Assembly (NCBI GenBank): GCA_016432485.1
Contig: CP066691.1
Location: forward strand, 452,709 to 516,708
Direction of reading: 5' to 3'
From: Candidatus Niyogibacteria bacterium
GTDB lineage: Bacteria; Patescibacteriota; Minisyncoccia; HO2-45-28
DNA length: 64,000 nt
Shown here: one piece after another, positions 575 to 42,929 of the stretch
Layout of the letters: each line of letters begins with the position of its first letter
Position numbering within the stretch: the first letter of the stretch is position 1
Position numbers and translations under genes: made by a program
Notes under the pieces: generated by a model
Told to the model about the DNA's origin: nothing
The model's input: the letters and a program-made list of their open reading frames with translations, nothing else
The model's database searches: none

Positions 575-728
575 TACAGCCCTCCTGCCGCTCGGTTTTT
601 AGCCTACGGCTCGAAGTATGAAAGAACTTCGTCCCGCCGTAACGGGACAAGGCGGACCATTCCGCCGAAAGTATATTAGCACGCAATGCTAAGGTCTGCA
701 ACAACATGCGAACGAAGCACATACGACG

Positions 729-749
729 TACGGACGTTCAACGTCCGTA
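729..749. repeat. REP-like palindrome tacggacgt-tca-acgtccgta, copy 1, immediately 3' of RAYT gene
   Basis: 9-bp perfect stem; same sequence recurs at 1242-1260, 1433-1452, 42416-42434. Confidence 0.7.
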
Positions 750-1433
750 TTAGGGTTCTAAATAATCCTTTTGTTCGCCCAATAATTCTTGGTCTCTTTC
801 GCTCCATTTCAGCATTGAATCAATTAGCTCTTCTGGATTTAAAAATTCTTCTAAAGCATGCCTAGAAATTATTAGATCGTCCTTTTTTCCGACAATACCC
901 AACAAACTGGACCACGGATATCTAAGTAATGCCGCTTTTGCACTTAAAACGCGTTTTATTCTTCCCCCTCGCCATTGGGGATGGGTATAATCTAACGCAT
1001 TAAGATGAATATAATTTACAAGGTGCTGAAAATAACGATCGGAATCAACGCGTATTACTTTAGCTCTTCCTTGAAACAAAACGCCCTTTCTTTTATTACG
1101 AAGATTAAAATACTTAACGTACCCGCCGAATATTTTTCTGACAAACTCGGTTGCGCCTTCGGGAGTTCTGCAACGAAAAAGAATGTGCGCGTGGTTATTC
1201 ATTAGAATATAAGCCAAAACCTCAACCAATTTTTCCTTTTCCGGACGTTGAACGTCCGTATTGTTATTAAAATTTCTAAGCTCCGCCGGCTCCCAAGAGT
1301 TAAAGATGCGCATCCCCAGCAAAAATCTTTGAAAATAAGAGTTGCCAGGAAATATAATTCTCCCGTCAACCCCCTTTTGACAAACATGATAAATCTCTTC
1401 TTCCACAAAAATCATATATTTTATATAGTACAC
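750..1433 (-). CDS. IS200/IS605-family TnpA-like HUH tyrosine transposase (REP-associated tyrosine transposase, RAYT-like); real start probably ATG at ~1415
   Basis: HuH motif 'LMNNHAHILF', 'YHV..G' N-term, C-terminal 'RYFQHLVNYIHLNAL' (catalytic Tyr helix) typical of Y1 transposases; flanked by REP hairpins; ORF as given starts at GTG. Confidence 0.6.
   Translation of the reverse strand: MYYIKYMIFVEEEIYHVCQKGVDGRIIFPGNSYFQRFLLGMRIFNSWEPAELRNFNNNTDVQRPEKEKLVEVLAYILMNNHAHILFRCRTPEGATEFVRKIFGGYVKYFNLRNKRKGVLFQGRAKVIRVDSDRYFQHLVNYIHLNALDYTHPQWRGGRIKRVLSAKAALLRYPWSSLLGIVGKKDDLIISRHALEEFLNPEELIDSMLKWSERDQELLGEQKDYLEP
1242..1260. repeat. REP-like palindrome (opposite orientation, ttgaa loop) lying in-frame inside the RAYT ORF (encodes TDVQRP)
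   Basis: cggacgttgaacgtccg; translation of ORF across it gives NTDVQRPEK. Confidence 0.6.
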
Positions 1434-1452
1434 GGACGTTCAACGTCCGTAA
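1433..1452. repeat. REP-like palindrome copy at 5' end of RAYT gene
   Basis: acggacgttcaacgtccgta. Confidence 0.7.
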
Positions 1453-1535
1453 ACATCTGTAAAATCAAAGGGGGGGGCGACAAAATTTGCGACCAATCAT
1501 AAAACCCGCCCAAAGGGCGGGTTTAAAAAACTATT

Positions 1536-4217
1536 TCAAATTATTCCAAAAAAGAACTTCTTGATATTCGCGGCGTCTCTTGAAAGCCACCGAGCATTCA
1601 TCCGTATGTGCTCAAGCGACTGTTCAATGGTGCGTTTGGCCGACGGCACGGGATGAGAAGCAAAAAATTCTTCTATTTCACGGGCCTTGCCTTCGGAAAC
1701 AAAGTCGTTGATAAGGCCGCCGATTATGCTTTGAAACATAAAAATTCCGCCGTCCGAATAGCGCCTACTTAACTCCGCAAAATTATTCTTCAGAAATTCC
1801 CACGCCCGATCGCGAGCGTACGCGTTTGCGCCGACGCTTCCGCTGATGAAAAAGACGTCTTGAGGCCTCACTTCATCCGAGAGCATAAATTCAAGGACTG
1901 ATTCAATCAGAGCTTGGGACCTGAATTTTCCAAGCGCTCTTAAAATTCTGGTCTTTTCTTCCGAAAGGCCTGTCGCGCGGTAAAGGTCAAGCAGGGCATG
2001 GTATTCCGCGTCGCTTCCATGGTCGGCCACAATCGCGTATACCGCTTCCTTCAAGTCGGGACTGATAAAACCGGATTTGAATTGCCTATACGCCTCAAAA
2101 ACAGTCGCGGGGTCTTTAGCTAAATTTGCAAAACCCCTTAAAATACGGGAGCGCAGAAGTTTATCGGTGTGGGTTTCGTTATCTTTCTGTTTCCATCCGA
2201 CATGCTCACTGATATCTTTCATCAATAGCCGCGAAAAATCGACCAACCCTCCTGAAAAATCAGTACTACAGAGCAAATTATCAAGCGAAGCCAAAATGCT
2301 TAAAATTTCCTGCCAGACGGCGTAATTTCTTTCTCCCCTGTAATACGGAAGCAACGAAAGAAGTTCCTCGGCTGAGACGCGTCCGGAGCGCGCGTTATAA
2401 AAAAGGTCGCTCAAAACTCCGAAACGATCTATTGGCGGAAGGTCGCCATTTGATAAAGGGACGCGCAATTTATGCAGAAACTCGGGCTCGTAATGAACGC
2501 GGCAAAAAGCCATTTGACCGGTGTTGATTTTCAACCATGTGTTGCCGGCGCTGAAAAGCGACTGATAGTCGGCTTCACTGCTCGGCATAGTTACGCGCAG
2601 TTCTCCCAAACCGCCGAGCTCAATGCCGAGCGGAATGGTCCAACGTTTTCCCCTCTCTTCGGAATCCAGAGTTTCGCCGCTTGAAAGAAACCTTTCTTGC
2701 CCCAAAGACACAAAGCCGCCGTCAATCCTCCTGACAGAAACCGAGGGATAACCCGCTTGTTTTGTCCAGCCGTCCATAAAAGATTTCACCGATTTGCCTG
2801 AAACTTCTTCAAAAACTTCGTAAAGTTCATCGGTTGAAGCATTTTTATAAGCAAAACGAATCAAGTAGGCCTTAAGACACTTTCTGAAAACCTCTTCGCC
2901 AAGATATTCAACCAGCATTCTTATGACGCAAGCGCCTTTTGAATAACTTATGGCGTCAAATATCTCATTTATTTCAGCGGGGTCGTTAACTTCAACTTCA
3001 ATCGGGTGAGTGCTTTTCAGGCCGTCTTTGGAAAGAGCGTTCGCGTATTCCCCGGCGACGAATTGCGTCTGAATGTCCCATTCTGGAAACAAATAATCGG
3101 TGCATTTCGGCTCAAGAAAGCTCGCGAACCCCTCGTTAAGCCACAAATCGTTCCACCATTTCATTGTCACAAGGTCTCCAAACCACATGTGCGTGTTTTC
3201 GTGAATGACGACTTCGGCTACGCGCTGTTTGGCTGAAGCAGCGGAATTTTCCGGGTCGTAAAGAAGCGTAGTTTCTCTGTAAGTCACAAGCCCCCAGTTC
3301 TCCATGGCTCCCGAGGCAAAATCGGGAACAGCAACCAAATCAAGTTTTGGCAAGGGATACGGCACGCCAAGATATTCTTCAAAAAATTCAATGCTCTTTT
3401 TGCAAGTATCAAGCGCGAACCGGCCCTGCTCAACTTTTCCGGGCGTCGTCCAGACCCTGATGGGTTTCCCGGGAATAACTATTTTTGATTTTTGACCATT
3501 ACCGCAACATTCGCCCTCGCAACTTTCGGCCTCTAGTTCAAGATCTTTGGTCCTGGTTTCGATTGATTCAAATTCTCCAACCGCAAAAGCCAGAGCGTAA
3601 GTTGACATCGGCGGAGTTTTTTCAAACTGGATAACTTTAAAGGGCCAAAAATCGGGGCATCTCTGAACCGGCATATTGGACAAAACCTGCAGATGGCGCG
3701 GCACAATAAAAGCAATTCTGAAAGTCGCTTTTATCGCCGGCTCGTCCCAGCACGGGAAAGCCCTGCGGGCATCGGTTGCTTCAAATTGAGTACAAGCCAT
3801 CCATCTTTTTTCACCGTTCACTTCATAACTTGAACGATAAAAACCGCGCATTTTGTCGTTCAAAACTCCGCTAAAATTGATGGTGAGCGCGTATCTGCCT
3901 TTTTGGAAAACCCTATCAAATTTTAAAGTAACGGTCTCTGCCTCCTTATTAAATTCCGTACCCTGCAATCTGGGGATGAATCTGTCGCGAGCAATGACTT
4001 TCACGTTATATATTGAAAGGTCTACGGCGTGCAGGACGATTTCCGAGGTTTCTTCCAAAACTTCAATCTCTATCAACTCACTGCCATCAAAAGTGAATTT
4101 TTTAAGATTGGGAGTAAATGTCAAGTAATACTCATCGGGTCTTACATTTTTAGGAAGACGAACGCCGGGTCTTACAGCTGACGCTTCCGGACACACGATC
4201 CTGCCTCCTTTTTTCAA
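1536..4217 (-). CDS. pepN: aminopeptidase N, M1 family zinc metallopeptidase
   Basis: GAMEN motif 'SGAMENWGLV' and 'HENTHMWFGDLVT...WLNEGFASF' (HEXXH-X18-E). Confidence 0.85.
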   Translation of the reverse strand: MKKGGRIVCPEASAVRPGVRLPKNVRPDEYYLTFTPNLKKFTFDGSELIEIEVLEETSEIVLHAVDLSIYNVKVIARDRFIPRLQGTEFNKEAETVTLKFDRVFQKGRYALTINFSGVLNDKMRGFYRSSYEVNGEKRWMACTQFEATDARRAFPCWDEPAIKATFRIAFIVPRHLQVLSNMPVQRCPDFWPFKVIQFEKTPPMSTYALAFAVGEFESIETRTKDLELEAESCEGECCGNGQKSKIVIPGKPIRVWTTPGKVEQGRFALDTCKKSIEFFEEYLGVPYPLPKLDLVAVPDFASGAMENWGLVTYRETTLLYDPENSAASAKQRVAEVVIHENTHMWFGDLVTMKWWNDLWLNEGFASFLEPKCTDYLFPEWDIQTQFVAGEYANALSKDGLKSTHPIEVEVNDPAEINEIFDAISYSKGACVIRMLVEYLGEEVFRKCLKAYLIRFAYKNASTDELYEVFEEVSGKSVKSFMDGWTKQAGYPSVSVRRIDGGFVSLGQERFLSSGETLDSEERGKRWTIPLGIELGGLGELRVTMPSSEADYQSLFSAGNTWLKINTGQMAFCRVHYEPEFLHKLRVPLSNGDLPPIDRFGVLSDLFYNARSGRVSAEELLSLLPYYRGERNYAVWQEILSILASLDNLLCSTDFSGGLVDFSRLLMKDISEHVGWKQKDNETHTDKLLRSRILRGFANLAKDPATVFEAYRQFKSGFISPDLKEAVYAIVADHGSDAEYHALLDLYRATGLSEEKTRILRALGKFRSQALIESVLEFMLSDEVRPQDVFFISGSVGANAYARDRAWEFLKNNFAELSRRYSDGGIFMFQSIIGGLINDFVSEGKAREIEEFFASHPVPSAKRTIEQSLEHIRMNARWLSRDAANIKKFFFGII

Positions 4218-4267
4218 GGACCGAAAACTAATTTAGAGTTTAATGCCGCTATGTTATATTTACAAGT

Positions 4268-4837
4268 ATGAAAATAATAGTCGGGCTCGGAAATCCGGGG
4301 AGCGATTATTCCGAAACGCGCCACAACGCCGGACGGCTCGCTTTGGAATACTTTGCCAAGAAAAATGATTTTCCGGATTGGAAGGAATCAAACAAATATT
4401 TTTCTCTTATTTCGGAAGGGGAAATCGGCAAAAAGCCGGTTTTATTGTTATTGCCAGAGACCTTTATGAATAACTCGGGCAAGGCGATCGCGCATCTAAA
4501 AGCTAAAAGCTATAAGCTAAAAGCTGAATTGATCGTCCTTCACGACGATATTGATTTGCCGTTGGGAAAAATCAAAATTTCATTCGGTCGGGGTTCGGGC
4601 GGGCATAAAGGAGTTGAATCAGTAATCCGCGCGTTAAAAACAAAAGATTTTTGGCGGATTCGTATTGGCGTCTCGCCGAAAAACAAGCTGCCGCATAAAA
4701 AAATTCCGGACTTTCTGACCTCGCCTATGCGCAAACCGGATTTTGAAACACTCAAAAAGTCATTCAAAAAAATTTCCGAAGCGTTGGAAACCATGCTTTC
4801 GAAATCCCCAGAAAAAGCGATGAATTTATTTAATTAA
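4268..4837 (+). CDS. pth: peptidyl-tRNA hydrolase
   Basis: N-term 'MKIIVGLGNPGSDYSETRHNAG', Pth fold length; contains short in-frame tandem repeat aaagct(a)taagct. Confidence 0.85.
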   Translation: MKIIVGLGNPGSDYSETRHNAGRLALEYFAKKNDFPDWKESNKYFSLISEGEIGKKPVLLLLPETFMNNSGKAIAHLKAKSYKLKAELIVLHDDIDLPLGKIKISFGRGSGGHKGVESVIRALKTKDFWRIRIGVSPKNKLPHKKIPDFLTSPMRKPDFETLKKSFKKISEALETMLSKSPEKAMNLFN

Positions 4838-8819: not shown

Positions 8820-10700
8820 ATGCCTTATCTGGTTTCAATAATTAAAAGAATAAAAAATAATCCCGCGCCGGCCTTATCAATTTTAATTGTTTTAGCTCTT
8901 CTGATTTTAGGGAACCAGCGCCGGCGGCCGCCCGACCGTCCGCGCTTGCCCGCGGTCATAAAAGACGGGGGGTACGGCCAATTTCTTTTTGCGGCCGCCA
9001 GATTACCCGTGGCGGGAGGCGATGAAAATAATTGGGGCGAAATTCTAAATGAATTTTTGCGAGTCAGCCACGAAGAAAACGGCGAGTTAAAACCGAGCGG
9101 TCTGGGAGATATAACCGGTCTTGGCATAGTAAACGTCAAGGAGTTTGGCGCCAAAGGCGATGGCACTACCGACGACACTTCGGCGATTCAAGCCGCGATT
9201 AATTACCGAGGCAGTGACGGCGGAATGGTTTATCTTCCGCCCGGGGTCTACCGCGTTACGAGTTCTCTGATATTTTTCAATAACAATCATATGAAATTCG
9301 CGGGCGCCGGCAAGAATCTGACGAATATATTGTGGGATGGCGGAGCGGCCGGCCCGGTGCTTGATGTCGGAAGCGTCCGAGACAGTTTTTTTGAGGGCTT
9401 CAGAATAGCCGTCCAGAGCGTTAATCTGAATCTGGCAATAAAAATACATAATGCTTCGGGCGCGACCGTATCCACAAATAATGTTTTCAGGGATATTTAC
9501 ATACACCCCACGGCTTGGGCTATAGGCGGGGGGTCTATCACCGACGGCGTCAAAATCGGAGACGGCACGGACGCCAACAATGATTTTCATAAGTTCATAA
9601 GAGTAAGTATGGGCGATATTCTTCGCGACGGATTTGTCATAGAAAACTCGTCACAAGCAAAACACATACTCTTTGAAGATTCTCATGTGGGCTCCTCAAG
9701 ATACGGCCTGCGGCAAGACGGAGGAGGAAGTTTCAAATGGGTCCGCGGCGGCATGCGCGGCCAGACCACGGCTAATTTCCACCTCGGTCAGCCGACGGAT
9801 GTCATTATGATAGACGGCATTGATGTTGAGCGTTCCGCGTCTTTTATGGACAGTTCCGGCGCCGCGTCAGATTGGGCGACCATAGTGCAGAATGTGCGCT
9901 GGGATTCTCCATCGGAGGCAAACGCGTCGGGTAAAGTTATAGAGTTTAATTTTTCCGGCCCTCTGGTGCTGATAGGAAACAGGTTTCAAAGCGGGACAAC
10001 GGACCTGATTGTAACCGGCAACACATCAACCTCGCTTGTCGCTATCGGTAATTACGTTAAAAATACGGCCACGACCAAATTTTGGTCCGGGTCGTGGAAA
10101 AGCATTGTTGCTCTCGGCAATCTGGTGGGCACTCCGTATACTTATCAAAACGCGGACGCGTCTTTCGGCGCGAATCTTTCCGTGTCCGAGGGTTCTAATT
10201 TTATCGTGCCCTCGGGCAAAATAGGAATCGGGACTTCAAACCCCCAAACCCCGCTGCATATAGTTTCTAATGCCGGAACTAAACTGGCCCTGGATCATCC
10301 CACTGCCGATTCAGGACAGGAAATATCATTTAGAGTCAACGGGGTGGATCGGGGGCTCATACAATGGTTCAACGGCGCTTTTCGTCTGCATCCAGACATA
10401 ACCGTGCTTGATCCGACAAGTCCTCCGTTTGTGGTCAACTCCTCCGGCAATGTCGGCATAGGCATCACCAGTCCAACCAGCAAACTGCATGTTGTGGGCA
10501 AAGCAACCATAACCGGCGGGATTGACCCTCCCTATGTATCATTTTCAGATGAAACGCGAGAAAGCATAATAAAACGCGCCGAAAACATTGAAGAGCACGA
10601 AAAAGTAATGATGTTCTGGAACAGCCAGACCAAAAGTATGGAGGTCTATAATATTCAGGAAGACACTTTTTATTCTGTCAGCGGTGAAAAATTGGACTAG
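8820..10700 (+). CDS. membrane-anchored right-handed beta-helix protein (pectate-lyase-3 / tailspike-like N-terminal domain) with C-terminal tail-fibre-like repeats
   Basis: 'VKEFGAKGDGTTDDTSAIQAAINY...GGMVYLPPGVYRV' motif; C-term repeats 'IGIGTSNPQTPLHIV' / 'VGIGITSPTSKLHVVG'; N-terminal TM. Confidence 0.6.
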   Translation: MPYLVSIIKRIKNNPAPALSILIVLALLILGNQRRRPPDRPRLPAVIKDGGYGQFLFAAARLPVAGGDENNWGEILNEFLRVSHEENGELKPSGLGDITGLGIVNVKEFGAKGDGTTDDTSAIQAAINYRGSDGGMVYLPPGVYRVTSSLIFFNNNHMKFAGAGKNLTNILWDGGAAGPVLDVGSVRDSFFEGFRIAVQSVNLNLAIKIHNASGATVSTNNVFRDIYIHPTAWAIGGGSITDGVKIGDGTDANNDFHKFIRVSMGDILRDGFVIENSSQAKHILFEDSHVGSSRYGLRQDGGGSFKWVRGGMRGQTTANFHLGQPTDVIMIDGIDVERSASFMDSSGAASDWATIVQNVRWDSPSEANASGKVIEFNFSGPLVLIGNRFQSGTTDLIVTGNTSTSLVAIGNYVKNTATTKFWSGSWKSIVALGNLVGTPYTYQNADASFGANLSVSEGSNFIVPSGKIGIGTSNPQTPLHIVSNAGTKLALDHPTADSGQEISFRVNGVDRGLIQWFNGAFRLHPDITVLDPTSPPFVVNSSGNVGIGITSPTSKLHVVGKATITGGIDPPYVSFSDETRESIIKRAENIEEHEKVMMFWNSQTKSMEVYNIQEDTFYSVSGEKLD

Positions 10701-41591: not shown

Positions 41592-42929
41592 TTATAAGAT
41601 TGACTCTATCAATTCTCTTATTTTCTCCTCCATCAGTTCTTTGCTTTCGGCTTCAACAACTAGACGGACGAGGGGTTCGGTTTTTGAGGCGCGGATGTTG
41701 AACCACCATTTTGGATATTCAACCGTCAGACCGTCAAGAAATGACTGCTTACCGCCTGAATATTCTTTTTTTAACCTTTCAATCGCCTCGGCCGGATTTT
41801 TGGTTTCAAAGTTTAATTCGCCGGAGTGAAAATACCGCATATAAGGTTTAAGGGTTTCAGAAAATGGCTTATCGGTTTTGGAGGCCAGAGACAAAACATG
41901 CGCCGCCATCAAAAGAGCCGAATCGGAATAATAAAAATCACGAAAATAAAAATGTCCCGAGAGTTCTCCTCCAAAACGAGCGTCTTTTAAACGCATTGCC
42001 GTCTTAATATTGGCATGGCCCACGGGAACACGCTCAAAACGAGCATTTTTATTTTTGGCGACATCCTCAATAATTTTTGAAACAGAGGCTGTGCCTAAAC
42101 ACAATTCTCCGCTTTGCAAAAAATTATCAAGTAAGAAAGCGTAAACATGGTTTGACTCAACCGTTTCTCCTTTTTCGTTTATAAAAAACACCCTGTCGCC
42201 GTCGGCGTCCACCATAAATCCCAGATCCGCTCCGGAATTTTTAACTTTTTCTTCAATCGTTTTTCTTGCTTCGGGTAAAAGCGGGTTTGGCGAGTGGTTT
42301 GGAAAATTTCCGTCGGGCTCAAAAAATAATTTTTCGGCTGAAACTCCGATTTCATCCAAAAATTTTTCCAAAACGAGTCCGGCCGAGCCGTTTGACGCGT
42401 CAACAACTATTTTTAACGGACGTTCAACGTCCGTATATTTTTTCAGGAAATCCAGATAACCGCGGACAAAATCTTTTTTCGCGATTTTTCCCGCGCCTAT
42501 TTTCCGAGGCATTTCGGAGCCAGCCAGTATTTCAATTTCGGGCAGGCCGTCTTTTTTATAGACCGGCCATCCGCCCTCGCGCACAAGTTTTAAGCCATTA
42601 TATTCTTTGGGATTGTGAGATGCGCTAACCATTGCCCCGCCCGCAGCACCCGATGAATTCACGGCGAAATAAAAAAGAGGAGTTGAAACAAGTCCAATAT
42701 CAATAACATCCCTGCCCCGGTCCAAACCCCCCCGGCTAAAGGCCTCAAATAATTCCGGCGACGAAAGACGCGCGTCGCGGCCAACTACGATATTTCCGAA
42801 AATTTTTTTGCGCCCCAGATATTCCGAAAACGCCGCGCCTATTTTATAAGCCGCGCTTTCATCAATTTCATCGGGGTATTTCCCGCGGATATCGTATTCT
42901 TTGAAAATTTCCGACTTGATATTACGCAT
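41592..42929 (-). CDS. phosphoglucomutase/phosphomannomutase (alpha-D-phosphohexomutase) carrying an in-frame REP copy
   Basis: active-site 'SASHNP', Mg loop 'DADGDR'. Confidence 0.8.
   Translation of the reverse strand: MRNIKSEIFKEYDIRGKYPDEIDESAAYKIGAAFSEYLGRKKIFGNIVVGRDARLSSPELFEAFSRGGLDRGRDVIDIGLVSTPLFYFAVNSSGAAGGAMVSASHNPKEYNGLKLVREGGWPVYKKDGLPEIEILAGSEMPRKIGAGKIAKKDFVRGYLDFLKKYTDVERPLKIVVDASNGSAGLVLEKFLDEIGVSAEKLFFEPDGNFPNHSPNPLLPEARKTIEEKVKNSGADLGFMVDADGDRVFFINEKGETVESNHVYAFLLDNFLQSGELCLGTASVSKIIEDVAKNKNARFERVPVGHANIKTAMRLKDARFGGELSGHFYFRDFYYSDSALLMAAHVLSLASKTDKPFSETLKPYMRYFHSGELNFETKNPAEAIERLKKEYSGGKQSFLDGLTVEYPKWWFNIRASKTEPLVRLVVEAESKELMEEKIRELIESIL
42416..42434. repeat. REP-like palindrome (same as RAYT-flanking REPs) in-frame inside pgm, encoding TDVERP
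   Basis: acggacgttcaacgtccgt; ORF reads ...KKYTDVERPLKIV... Confidence 0.7.

Follow-up and report, generated by a model that had tools for sequence, protein, structure and literature searches.

Why should a gene for a transposase-like enzyme carry the same DNA hairpin at both of its ends and once more, read in frame, within its own coding sequence? The question is raised by a locus near the start of a stretch of 64,000 nucleotides (nt) from a Candidatus Niyogibacteria bacterium (assembly GCA_016432485.1, contig CP066691.1, positions 452,709 to 516,708), referred to below as the window, whose positions are used for all coordinates unless another locus is named. The host is a tiny groundwater bacterium of the Candidate Phyla Radiation (CPR; Patescibacteria), and the gene encodes a Y1 HuH/tyrosine enzyme. 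An earlier interpretation of this DNA from its letters alone (the sequence-only reading) had taken the gene for a transposase associated with repetitive extragenic palindromes (REPs) that had been invaded by its own REP. Comparison with related loci points instead to an old internal copy, held at a fixed position across the family and changing together with the copies that flank the gene.

A Y1 HuH enzyme gene with three copies of one palindrome

To judge from its motifs and its predicted fold, the product of the open reading frame (ORF) is a Y1 HuH/tyrosine enzyme of the class that resembles REP-associated tyrosine transposases (RAYTs). Both of the motifs on which this assignment was originally made can be read in the translation: NNHAHILF, which contains the HuH motif (H75-A-H77), and HLVNYIHLNAL, in which a catalytic-type tyrosine, Y135, stands within YIHLNA. 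The protein ends in a C-terminal tail with YPWSS. In an alignment of 23 sequences H75, H77, Y135 and N139 are invariant, the family consensus includes LMxNHxH, GVLFQG, YIHLNx and YPWSS, and lengths range from 211 to 260 amino acids (aa). Homology to the Pfam family Y1_Tnp (PF01797) is present, if marginally so (24.8 bits against a cutoff of 23, E 2.6e-5, residues 65-143), and most homologues have it too. By contrast, the cutoff of the NCBIfam equivalog for RAYT/TnpA-REP proteins, NF047646, was missed (30.2 bits against 80).

An AlphaFold2 model of the protein (pLDDT 89.9) consists of a strand (8-15), a helix (25-37), a coil (38-63), the HuH strands (64-82) and a helix that bears Y135 (126-141), with confidence falling to 59-77 in the coil. 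When this model was compared with solved structures using Foldseek, the top match was 4er8_A, the E. coli RAYT bound to a REP hairpin, followed by the TnpA proteins of ISDra2 and IS608 (2xm3, 2a6m), and a profile search agreed with this ranking. The description of the gene as that of a REP-associated transposase was thus borne out by the Pfam match, by the leading fold match and by the hairpins that bracket it, but not by the equivalog model. Compared at the level of motifs only, the set NHxH, FQ, YIHLN[A/P] and YPWSS, with a length of about 220-240 aa, fits TnpA-Y1 subclass 2.1, which corresponds to Bertels Group 1.

The repeated element is a 17-nt palindrome, CGGACGTT-S-AACGTCCG (ACGGACGTTSAACGTCCGT). 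A search for this 17-mer that tolerated as many as three mismatches gave four matches in the window where 0.11 are expected; none of 100 shuffled sequences gave four, and it is the sole repeated family among the window's 29 perfect palindromes. Chance and assembly artefact were ruled out as sources of the repeats by these shuffles and by recurrence in dozens of independent assemblies. Three of the copies, here called downstream (D), internal (I) and upstream (U), are at the gene (Table 1). As the sequence-only reading had it, D directly follows the stop codon (TAA at 752-750, minus strand), and I is in frame with an inverted centre. U had been placed over the start of the gene; the copy is real, but it overlaps only a longer, mechanically called ORF with a GTG start (750-1433, minus strand, 227 aa), whereas the ATG at 1415 is the start of the deposited protein and of all homologues. 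That protein is encoded on a contig of 836,981 bp.

On the gene strand, I reads ACG GAC GTT CAA CGT CCG and is translated in frame as T53-D-V-Q-R-P58, in the context N-T-D-V-Q-R-P-E, within the coil between helix 25-37 and strand 64-71. A fourth exact copy, which had escaped the earlier reader, lies in a distant phosphomannomutase gene. Two of the four copies in the window are therefore in coding sequence, and this orphan is the only one in 62.7 kb. The hairpins are flanked by TTT, AAT or TAT before ACGG..., with none of the GTAG or GT[AG]G feet by which canonical REPs are recognised.

Table 1 Features of the Y1 gene and its hairpins in the 64-kb window.
Feature	Position	Strand	Description
Downstream hairpin, D	729-749		Perfect 21-nt palindrome, TACGGACGTT-C-AACGTCCGTA; first base directly follows the stop codon
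Y1 HuH/tyrosine enzyme gene	750-1415	-	221 aa; identical to QQG45816.1 ('transposase', Candidatus Niyogibacteria)
Internal hairpin, I	1242-1258		CGGACGTT-G-AACGTCCG; centre base opposite to that of D and U
Spacer between U and ATG	1416-1431	-	GTACTATATAAAATAT; AT-rich, resembles a -10 box
Upstream hairpin, U	1432-1450		ACGGACGTT-C-AACGTCCGT; ends 16 nt ahead of the ATG at 1415
Orphan copy	42416-42434		ACGGACGTT-C-AACGTCCGT; inside a phosphomannomutase/phosphoglucomutase gene (41592-42929, minus strand)

The internal copy is old and keeps its position

Related loci were found with an alignment of 7 close sequences, 80 metagenome loci were fetched, and 86 loci in total were tabulated for perfect hairpins. 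A match to a locus's own hairpin was defined as no more than three mismatches in 14 arm bases, and in most cases there were none. All five of the closest homologue loci (L121-L125) share one anatomy, an ORF between two hairpins with a third read in frame inside it, at a position that coincides in the alignment, and yet the hairpins of the five all differ (ACGGATGT, ACGGCAGT, TCGGAAGT, GGAGAT and CCAGAGAT). Flanking hairpins are present at most of the 86 loci, with the equivalent of D starting between -7 and +30 nt from the stop codon. Where a hairpin family could be defined, the locus's own hairpin was found at +42 to +54 aa past a conserved N-terminal Tyr-His in 50 of 65 loci (77%). As a control, probes taken from other loci were compared with the whole ORF, and no more than 46 of 2134 such tests (2%) gave a match; the other loops of the protein and its C-terminal tail almost never contain a copy (2 loci). 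The recurrence of a locus's own hairpin at the same place indicates that the internal arrangement is old and has been maintained.

The protein segment around I had been described as absent from the canonical IS200 TnpA, and its comparison with homologues gave a divided answer. Both hidden Markov models, from Pfam and from NCBIfam, skip about 25 residues at the linker that contains I, and a distant homologue, P0036, is without the linker, so that the segment is indeed extra relative to distant proteins and to the models. By contrast, homologues of 31-55% identity all have a variable linker of similar length at this position, and against these closer proteins there is no gain in length and no insertion. 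The gene for P0036 has no hairpins, and is flanked by the terminal inverted repeats GGGGACGGTTCTATTTA ... TAAATAGAACCGT (L213, about 700-771 and 1465-1490; likewise at L214).

Over 37 distinct arms, the apex of the hairpin is conserved as GAnGT-nnn-ACnTC while the lower stem varies, and the type of hairpin tracks the protein clade. A conserved apex combined with a hairpin type that follows the clade of the protein is what co-evolution of an enzyme with its site would look like. In two clades I is read in two different frames, as '...S-E-V-G-L-P...' and as '...L-Q-G-S-T-L...', which implies that the conserved thing is a DNA element and not a peptide. The internal stems have a median length of 10 bp, reach 20 bp, and are perfect in Watson-Crick pairing. 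A search for a rule fixing the orientation of the three loops at a locus found none, the four patterns occurring 9, 8, 7 and 7 times.

The copies at a locus change together

Sequence change at these loci is concerted. Between two loci with 83% nt identity (L141 and L159), two stem positions differ, and they do so in both arms of all three copies. At a further locus (L131), two paralogous Y1 genes (949-1626 and 3986-4669) with 64% aa identity lie 2.4 kb apart, each with an upstream, an internal and a downstream hairpin; all six sites share the stem GTTTGAAGT, and the loop triplet is specific to the paralogue (CCG/CGG versus TCC/GGA). Individual copies often have a palindromic extension of their own outside the shared core, as at L134 and L138.

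The internal copy can also be lost. In the close relatives L209, L210 and L212, which have about 92% nt identity to the window and the same aminopeptidase neighbour, the flanking hairpins are intact, U being identical to that of the window, and I has decayed to ACAGACATTCGACATCCG through four transitions and an adjacent 3-nt indel, with 14 of 18 nt kept. A similar decay of I relative to L142, again with intact flanking copies, is seen at L165.

Several loci show local rearrangements of the hairpins. Beside the downstream hairpin of L209 (about 3535-3575), and also in L210, an arm is partially duplicated (AATACGGACGT), and at L121 (2751-2785) the right arm ACATCCGT is duplicated in the corresponding place. 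These partial duplications may have been left by slippage, or by a hairpin being cut and rejoined. At L173 (8-191) four upstream copies of the locus's hairpin stand in tandem with a spacing of ~55 nt, and at L139 (1086-1169) three downstream copies, spaced at ~30 nt, are interleaved with a second palindrome made by adjacent arms.

The upstream copy overlaps a likely core promoter

A hexamer resembling TATAAT precedes the ATG in 37 of 55 relatives, its end 3-16 nt from the start codon (mode 6-7), compared with 15% in shuffled sequences; the upstream hairpin ends 0-21 nt upstream of this hexamer. On the strength of these boxes in the relatives, the spacer between U and the ATG in the window would be a core promoter whose mRNA has a short leader or none, with U overlapping the promoter and lying outside that transcript. 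The position of U outside the transcript of its own promoter favours a role at the DNA level, one common to the three copies. A scan of positions 500-1700 against Rfam gave no family at or above its gathering score.

Further upstream, between U and the M1 aminopeptidase gene (1536-4217, minus strand), eight consecutive G (about 1463-1470) are found in the region 1460-1524, together with a hairpin that has the look of a strong terminator, AAACCCGCCC-aaa-GGGCGGGTTT (1502-1524). The terminator-like hairpin is kept in close relatives; the G run is not.

The gene appears low in copy number, with few hairpins elsewhere in the sequences examined

More than 300 nt from the gene, 9 hairpin copies were counted in 303 kb of the relatives' sequence (0.3 per 10 kb), three of which belong to the paralogue at L131, and the orphans examined were mostly intergenic or at gene ends. 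Given this scarcity, and with half of the window's own copies in coding sequence, the sequences examined do not support REPs in the usual sense of abundant, extragenic, genome-wide repeats. There is one copy of the Y1 gene in the window, and two diverged paralogues occur at L131. Neighbourhoods are conserved across deep divergence in three groups: one with a xerC-like recombinase, NYN and pnp; one with pilD, pilin, pilB and pilC; and one with the M1 aminopeptidase. Among the 86 loci no near-identical gene copies were found in different contexts. The gene therefore looks vertically inherited and low in copy number, with the appearance of a domesticated enzyme gene and not of an active insertion sequence (IS).

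Other features of copies outside the gene were noted in passing. At L161 (about 3735-3985), a stretch of 251 nt that resembles a tRNA gene on the opposite strand (putative) separates one hairpin copy from the gene. At L176 (4667-4693 and 5372-5398), the neighbouring gene, for a protein with a metallo-beta-lactamase fold, has the Y1 gene's downstream hairpin on one side and an orphan of that hairpin on the other. Among the genome matches listed for the 17-mer CGGACGTTSAACGTCCG are more than 25 loci in Amycolatopsis sp. cmx-11-12, together with A. decaplanina and WAC 01376. The matches listed are chance or unrelated ones; among them Amycolatopsis far outnumbers the other genera, and its matches may be part of a separate actinobacterial repeat family.

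A copy in a phosphomannomutase gene adds no length

The orphan copy in the window is read in frame, as Y-T-D-V-E-R-P-L, within a phosphomannomutase ORF of 445 aa. Its origin as an in-frame insertion, in the style of the Rickettsia palindromic elements, was considered and rejected, as homologues are equal in length and have a related peptide at this position (TDIKRPLK, AEIKKPLK or TDVRRPLK); the copy overlies an existing T-D-[IV]-x-R-P stretch. The exact palindrome is also present in two orthologues, L208 (95% aa identity; 10497-10519) and L206 (79% aa and 75% nt identity; 2206-2228), and the latter, for all its nt divergence, keeps an identical stretch of 30 nt around the hairpin. In a third orthologue, L207 (78% aa identity), the palindrome is absent and a similar peptide is encoded by an unrelated series of codons. 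It looks as though a similar sequence already in place was overwritten with no change of length, the copy then being kept in at least two lineages. Such a copy in a housekeeping gene hints that hairpins of this kind can overwrite as well as insert.

What could keep the three copies alike

The explanation that we favour, and regard as moderately probable, is a REPtron-like unit, comprising a 2.1-like Y1 HuH enzyme of a CPR/Patescibacteria clade and three cognate palindromes, in which an old internal copy is kept matched to the flanking ones and the sites likely serve autoregulation. The three palindromes would most likely be cognate DNA sites of the encoded enzyme, acting as a dimer, which would bind them as hairpins on single-stranded DNA in the manner of the 4ER8 and IS608 complexes. 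For the internal copy, which stands in a dispensable surface linker, the most likely origin is an ancient in-frame insertion of the hairpin in the ancestor of the clade. The copy would since have been kept identical to the flanks by repeated copying between sites, either through short-patch conversion or through replacement mediated by the enzyme, and would decay in some lineages. Because U lies over the core promoter, the sites would most probably serve to autoregulate the enzyme gene, with I as a second operator or roadblock, or as a passenger that is merely tolerated.

Several observations weigh against this explanation. An intact I is missing in 15 of the 65 loci and in the nearest relative of the window, and hence is not essential. 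The random orientation of the loops argues against a strand-specific transposition geometry and does not identify a function. It is equally possible that the perfect palindromes are operators, bound as duplex DNA by a different dimeric protein. Finally, a sigma-70 scan of the window called no promoter between U and the ATG, the -10-like box here being weak.

Other explanations are taken in falling order of plausibility. A tentative one, which we hold possible without expecting it to be right, gives I more weight, as a self-target under selection. In binding to its own coding sequence, and perhaps in nicking and rejoining it, the enzyme would use the three sites together to throttle the gene, and the concerted replacement of copies would be the in vivo footprint of hairpin replacement catalysed by the enzyme. 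The same activity could overwrite similar sequences elsewhere with length unchanged, as in the phosphomannomutase gene. If this were so, REPs would have a way of spreading by copy-over, as opposed to insertion.

Another possibility, which we regard as unlikely, is that I is a neutral passenger and the enzyme is uninvolved, with template switching perfecting the stems and flipping the loops and short-patch conversion equalising the three repeats in the absence of selection on I. The individual palindromic extensions beyond the shared core (L134, L138) are consistent with such a process, as are the random orientation of the loops and the placing of I in a disordered linker from which some lineages have lost it. 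What neutrality leaves unexplained is that a single fixed position is kept in most loci while the other loops and the tail are almost never used, and that the apex GAnGT/ACnTC is conserved family-wide.

We consider it improbable that the locus is an autonomous element of the IS200/IS605 type, in which U and D would be the left and right subterminal hairpins of a unit that transposes via a single-stranded circle, and I would be incidental. IS200 elements likewise have the order hairpin-gene-hairpin, the hairpins cluster at the gene with few elsewhere, and the Y1 fold matches the TnpA proteins of IS608 and ISDra2. Yet the tyrosine motif is Y---N (class 2) and not the Y---Q of IS200, neighbourhoods are conserved over deep divergence, and the 86 loci are without near-identical copies in different contexts. 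Moreover, U and D are identical perfect palindromes with randomly oriented loops and so provide no distinct left and right ends, and single orphan hairpins occur.

A role at the RNA level appears more doubtful still. The copies would then act as a structure at the 5' end of the mRNA, as an internal site of translational pausing or RNase action, and as a 3' stabiliser or a stop-proximal REP that lowers expression. Stop-proximal REPs have been reported to down-regulate genes in E. coli, D abuts or overlaps the stop codon, and the long internal stems would suit a structure in RNA. However, U lies upstream of the -10-like box, and hence outside the transcript of its own promoter, free flipping of the loops alters the sequence of an RNA loop, and no Rfam family reached threshold. 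A comparison of G-T with A-C mismatches in the stems, which bears on a role in RNA versus DNA, gave no excess of G-T, but the counts were 1 and 1, too few to be informative.

The weakest candidate is a one-off event, as the sequence-only reading had proposed, in which a mobile REP of the host genome was recently inserted in frame into its own transposase gene in one lineage; for all that the segment is missing from canonical IS200/RAYT models and from P0036, that in-frame REP insertions in tnpA-REP genes are documented in subclass 2.4 (PMC6006769), and that the nearest relative is non-palindromic at the site, which could mean recent conversion in the window lineage, we judge this very improbable and, as a recent and lineage-specific insertion, largely refuted, since there is no gain in length against any homologue of 31-55% identity, 50 of 65 loci have a hairpin of their own at this position, and what the sister lineage shows is a decayed but still recognisable copy, not an empty site.

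Comparison with known systems

The nearest class by motif, subclass 2.1, is defined by NHVH or NH[YF]H, W[EQ] or FQ, YIELNP or Y[IV]HLNP, a C-terminal tail with SS and a median length of 238 aa (Quentin, Siguier, Chandler and Fichant 2018, PMC6006769, Table 1), and is equivalent to the Bertels Group 1 RAYTs and to the 'TIRYT' proteins of Di Nocera 2013 (PMC6006769; PMC3733652). The clade of the window shares with it NH[YF/A]H, FQ in place of WE/WQ, Y[IV]HLN[P/A], the YPWSS tail, a length of about 220-240 aa and a low copy number, and the distant homologue P0036 is, like the TIRYTs, flanked by terminal inverted repeats. No REP-like structures have been reported for subclass 2.1 (PMC6006769), whereas the CPR clade has a perfect hairpin at each end of the gene and another in frame, and its proteins have an additional linker of ~25 aa. 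Counts of flanking 16-mers are low for Groups 1 and 4 (Bertels et al., PMC5581495).

The closest parallel to the internal copy comes from subclass 2.4 (Bertels Group 4), in which the REPs that flank tnpA-REP genes have been inserted into the genes themselves, with the frame kept, in a peripheral loop of the protein (PMC6006769). Here too a gene's own flanking hairpin occurs inside the gene without breaking the frame. Members of subclass 2.4 have the motifs NH[IFV]H, WQ and YIxNNP, REP insertions between HuH and Y, and long REPs with GT[AG]G feet (PMC6006769). By contrast, the clade of the window has FQ and YIHLNA, a single fixed site upstream of HuH (residues 53-58 in the window) and no GTAG foot, and belongs to the CPR.

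With the E. coli TnpA-REP/RAYT REPtron (4ER8), its best structural match, the locus shares a gene flanked by hairpins, here putatively cognate ones, and in the sequences examined this gene appears to be single-copy and vertically inherited. It differs in sequence (13% identity) and in having no GTAG guide tetranucleotide, no bulged stems and no REPIN doublets, and nothing in the relatives' sequence away from the gene pointed to hundreds of dispersed copies. IS200/IS605 elements (IS608, ISDra2) resemble the locus in the Y1 HuH fold of their TnpA and in having a subterminal hairpin on either side of the gene. Elements of this kind (subclass 1.1), however, are marked by Y---Q, by a TnpA of ~150 aa that consists of the core only, and by near-identical copies in large numbers per genome, as against Y---N, 221 aa, a C-terminal domain, the extra linker and identical ends in the window; no multicopy behaviour of the IS200/IS605 kind was seen among the 86 loci. 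Intragenic REPs and Rickettsia palindromic elements have been catalogued in host genes, together with the TIRYTs (Di Nocera 2013, PMC3733652). The phosphomannomutase copy resembles these as a palindromic repeat read in frame in a housekeeping gene, but they insert residues and it does not.

These comparisons extend the association with hairpins to the 2.1-like TnpA-Y1 group and to reduced CPR genomes. The clade provides a compact natural system for asking how REP-type hairpins spread and stay alike, and of what use domesticated Y1 transposases are to the bacteria that keep them, with three putative cognate sites within 700 bp, one of which is forced to be translatable, and with hundreds of independent lineages in which site and enzyme have changed jointly, making concerted evolution, site recognition and possible autoregulation testable. 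Our searches of open-access text gave no account of an in-frame hairpin that keeps one position and co-varies, whether in a 2.1-like clade or in the CPR. In-frame REPs in tnpA-REP genes are already known, at another position in subclass 2.4; what appears to be new is the fixed-position variant in a 2.1-like clade of the CPR.

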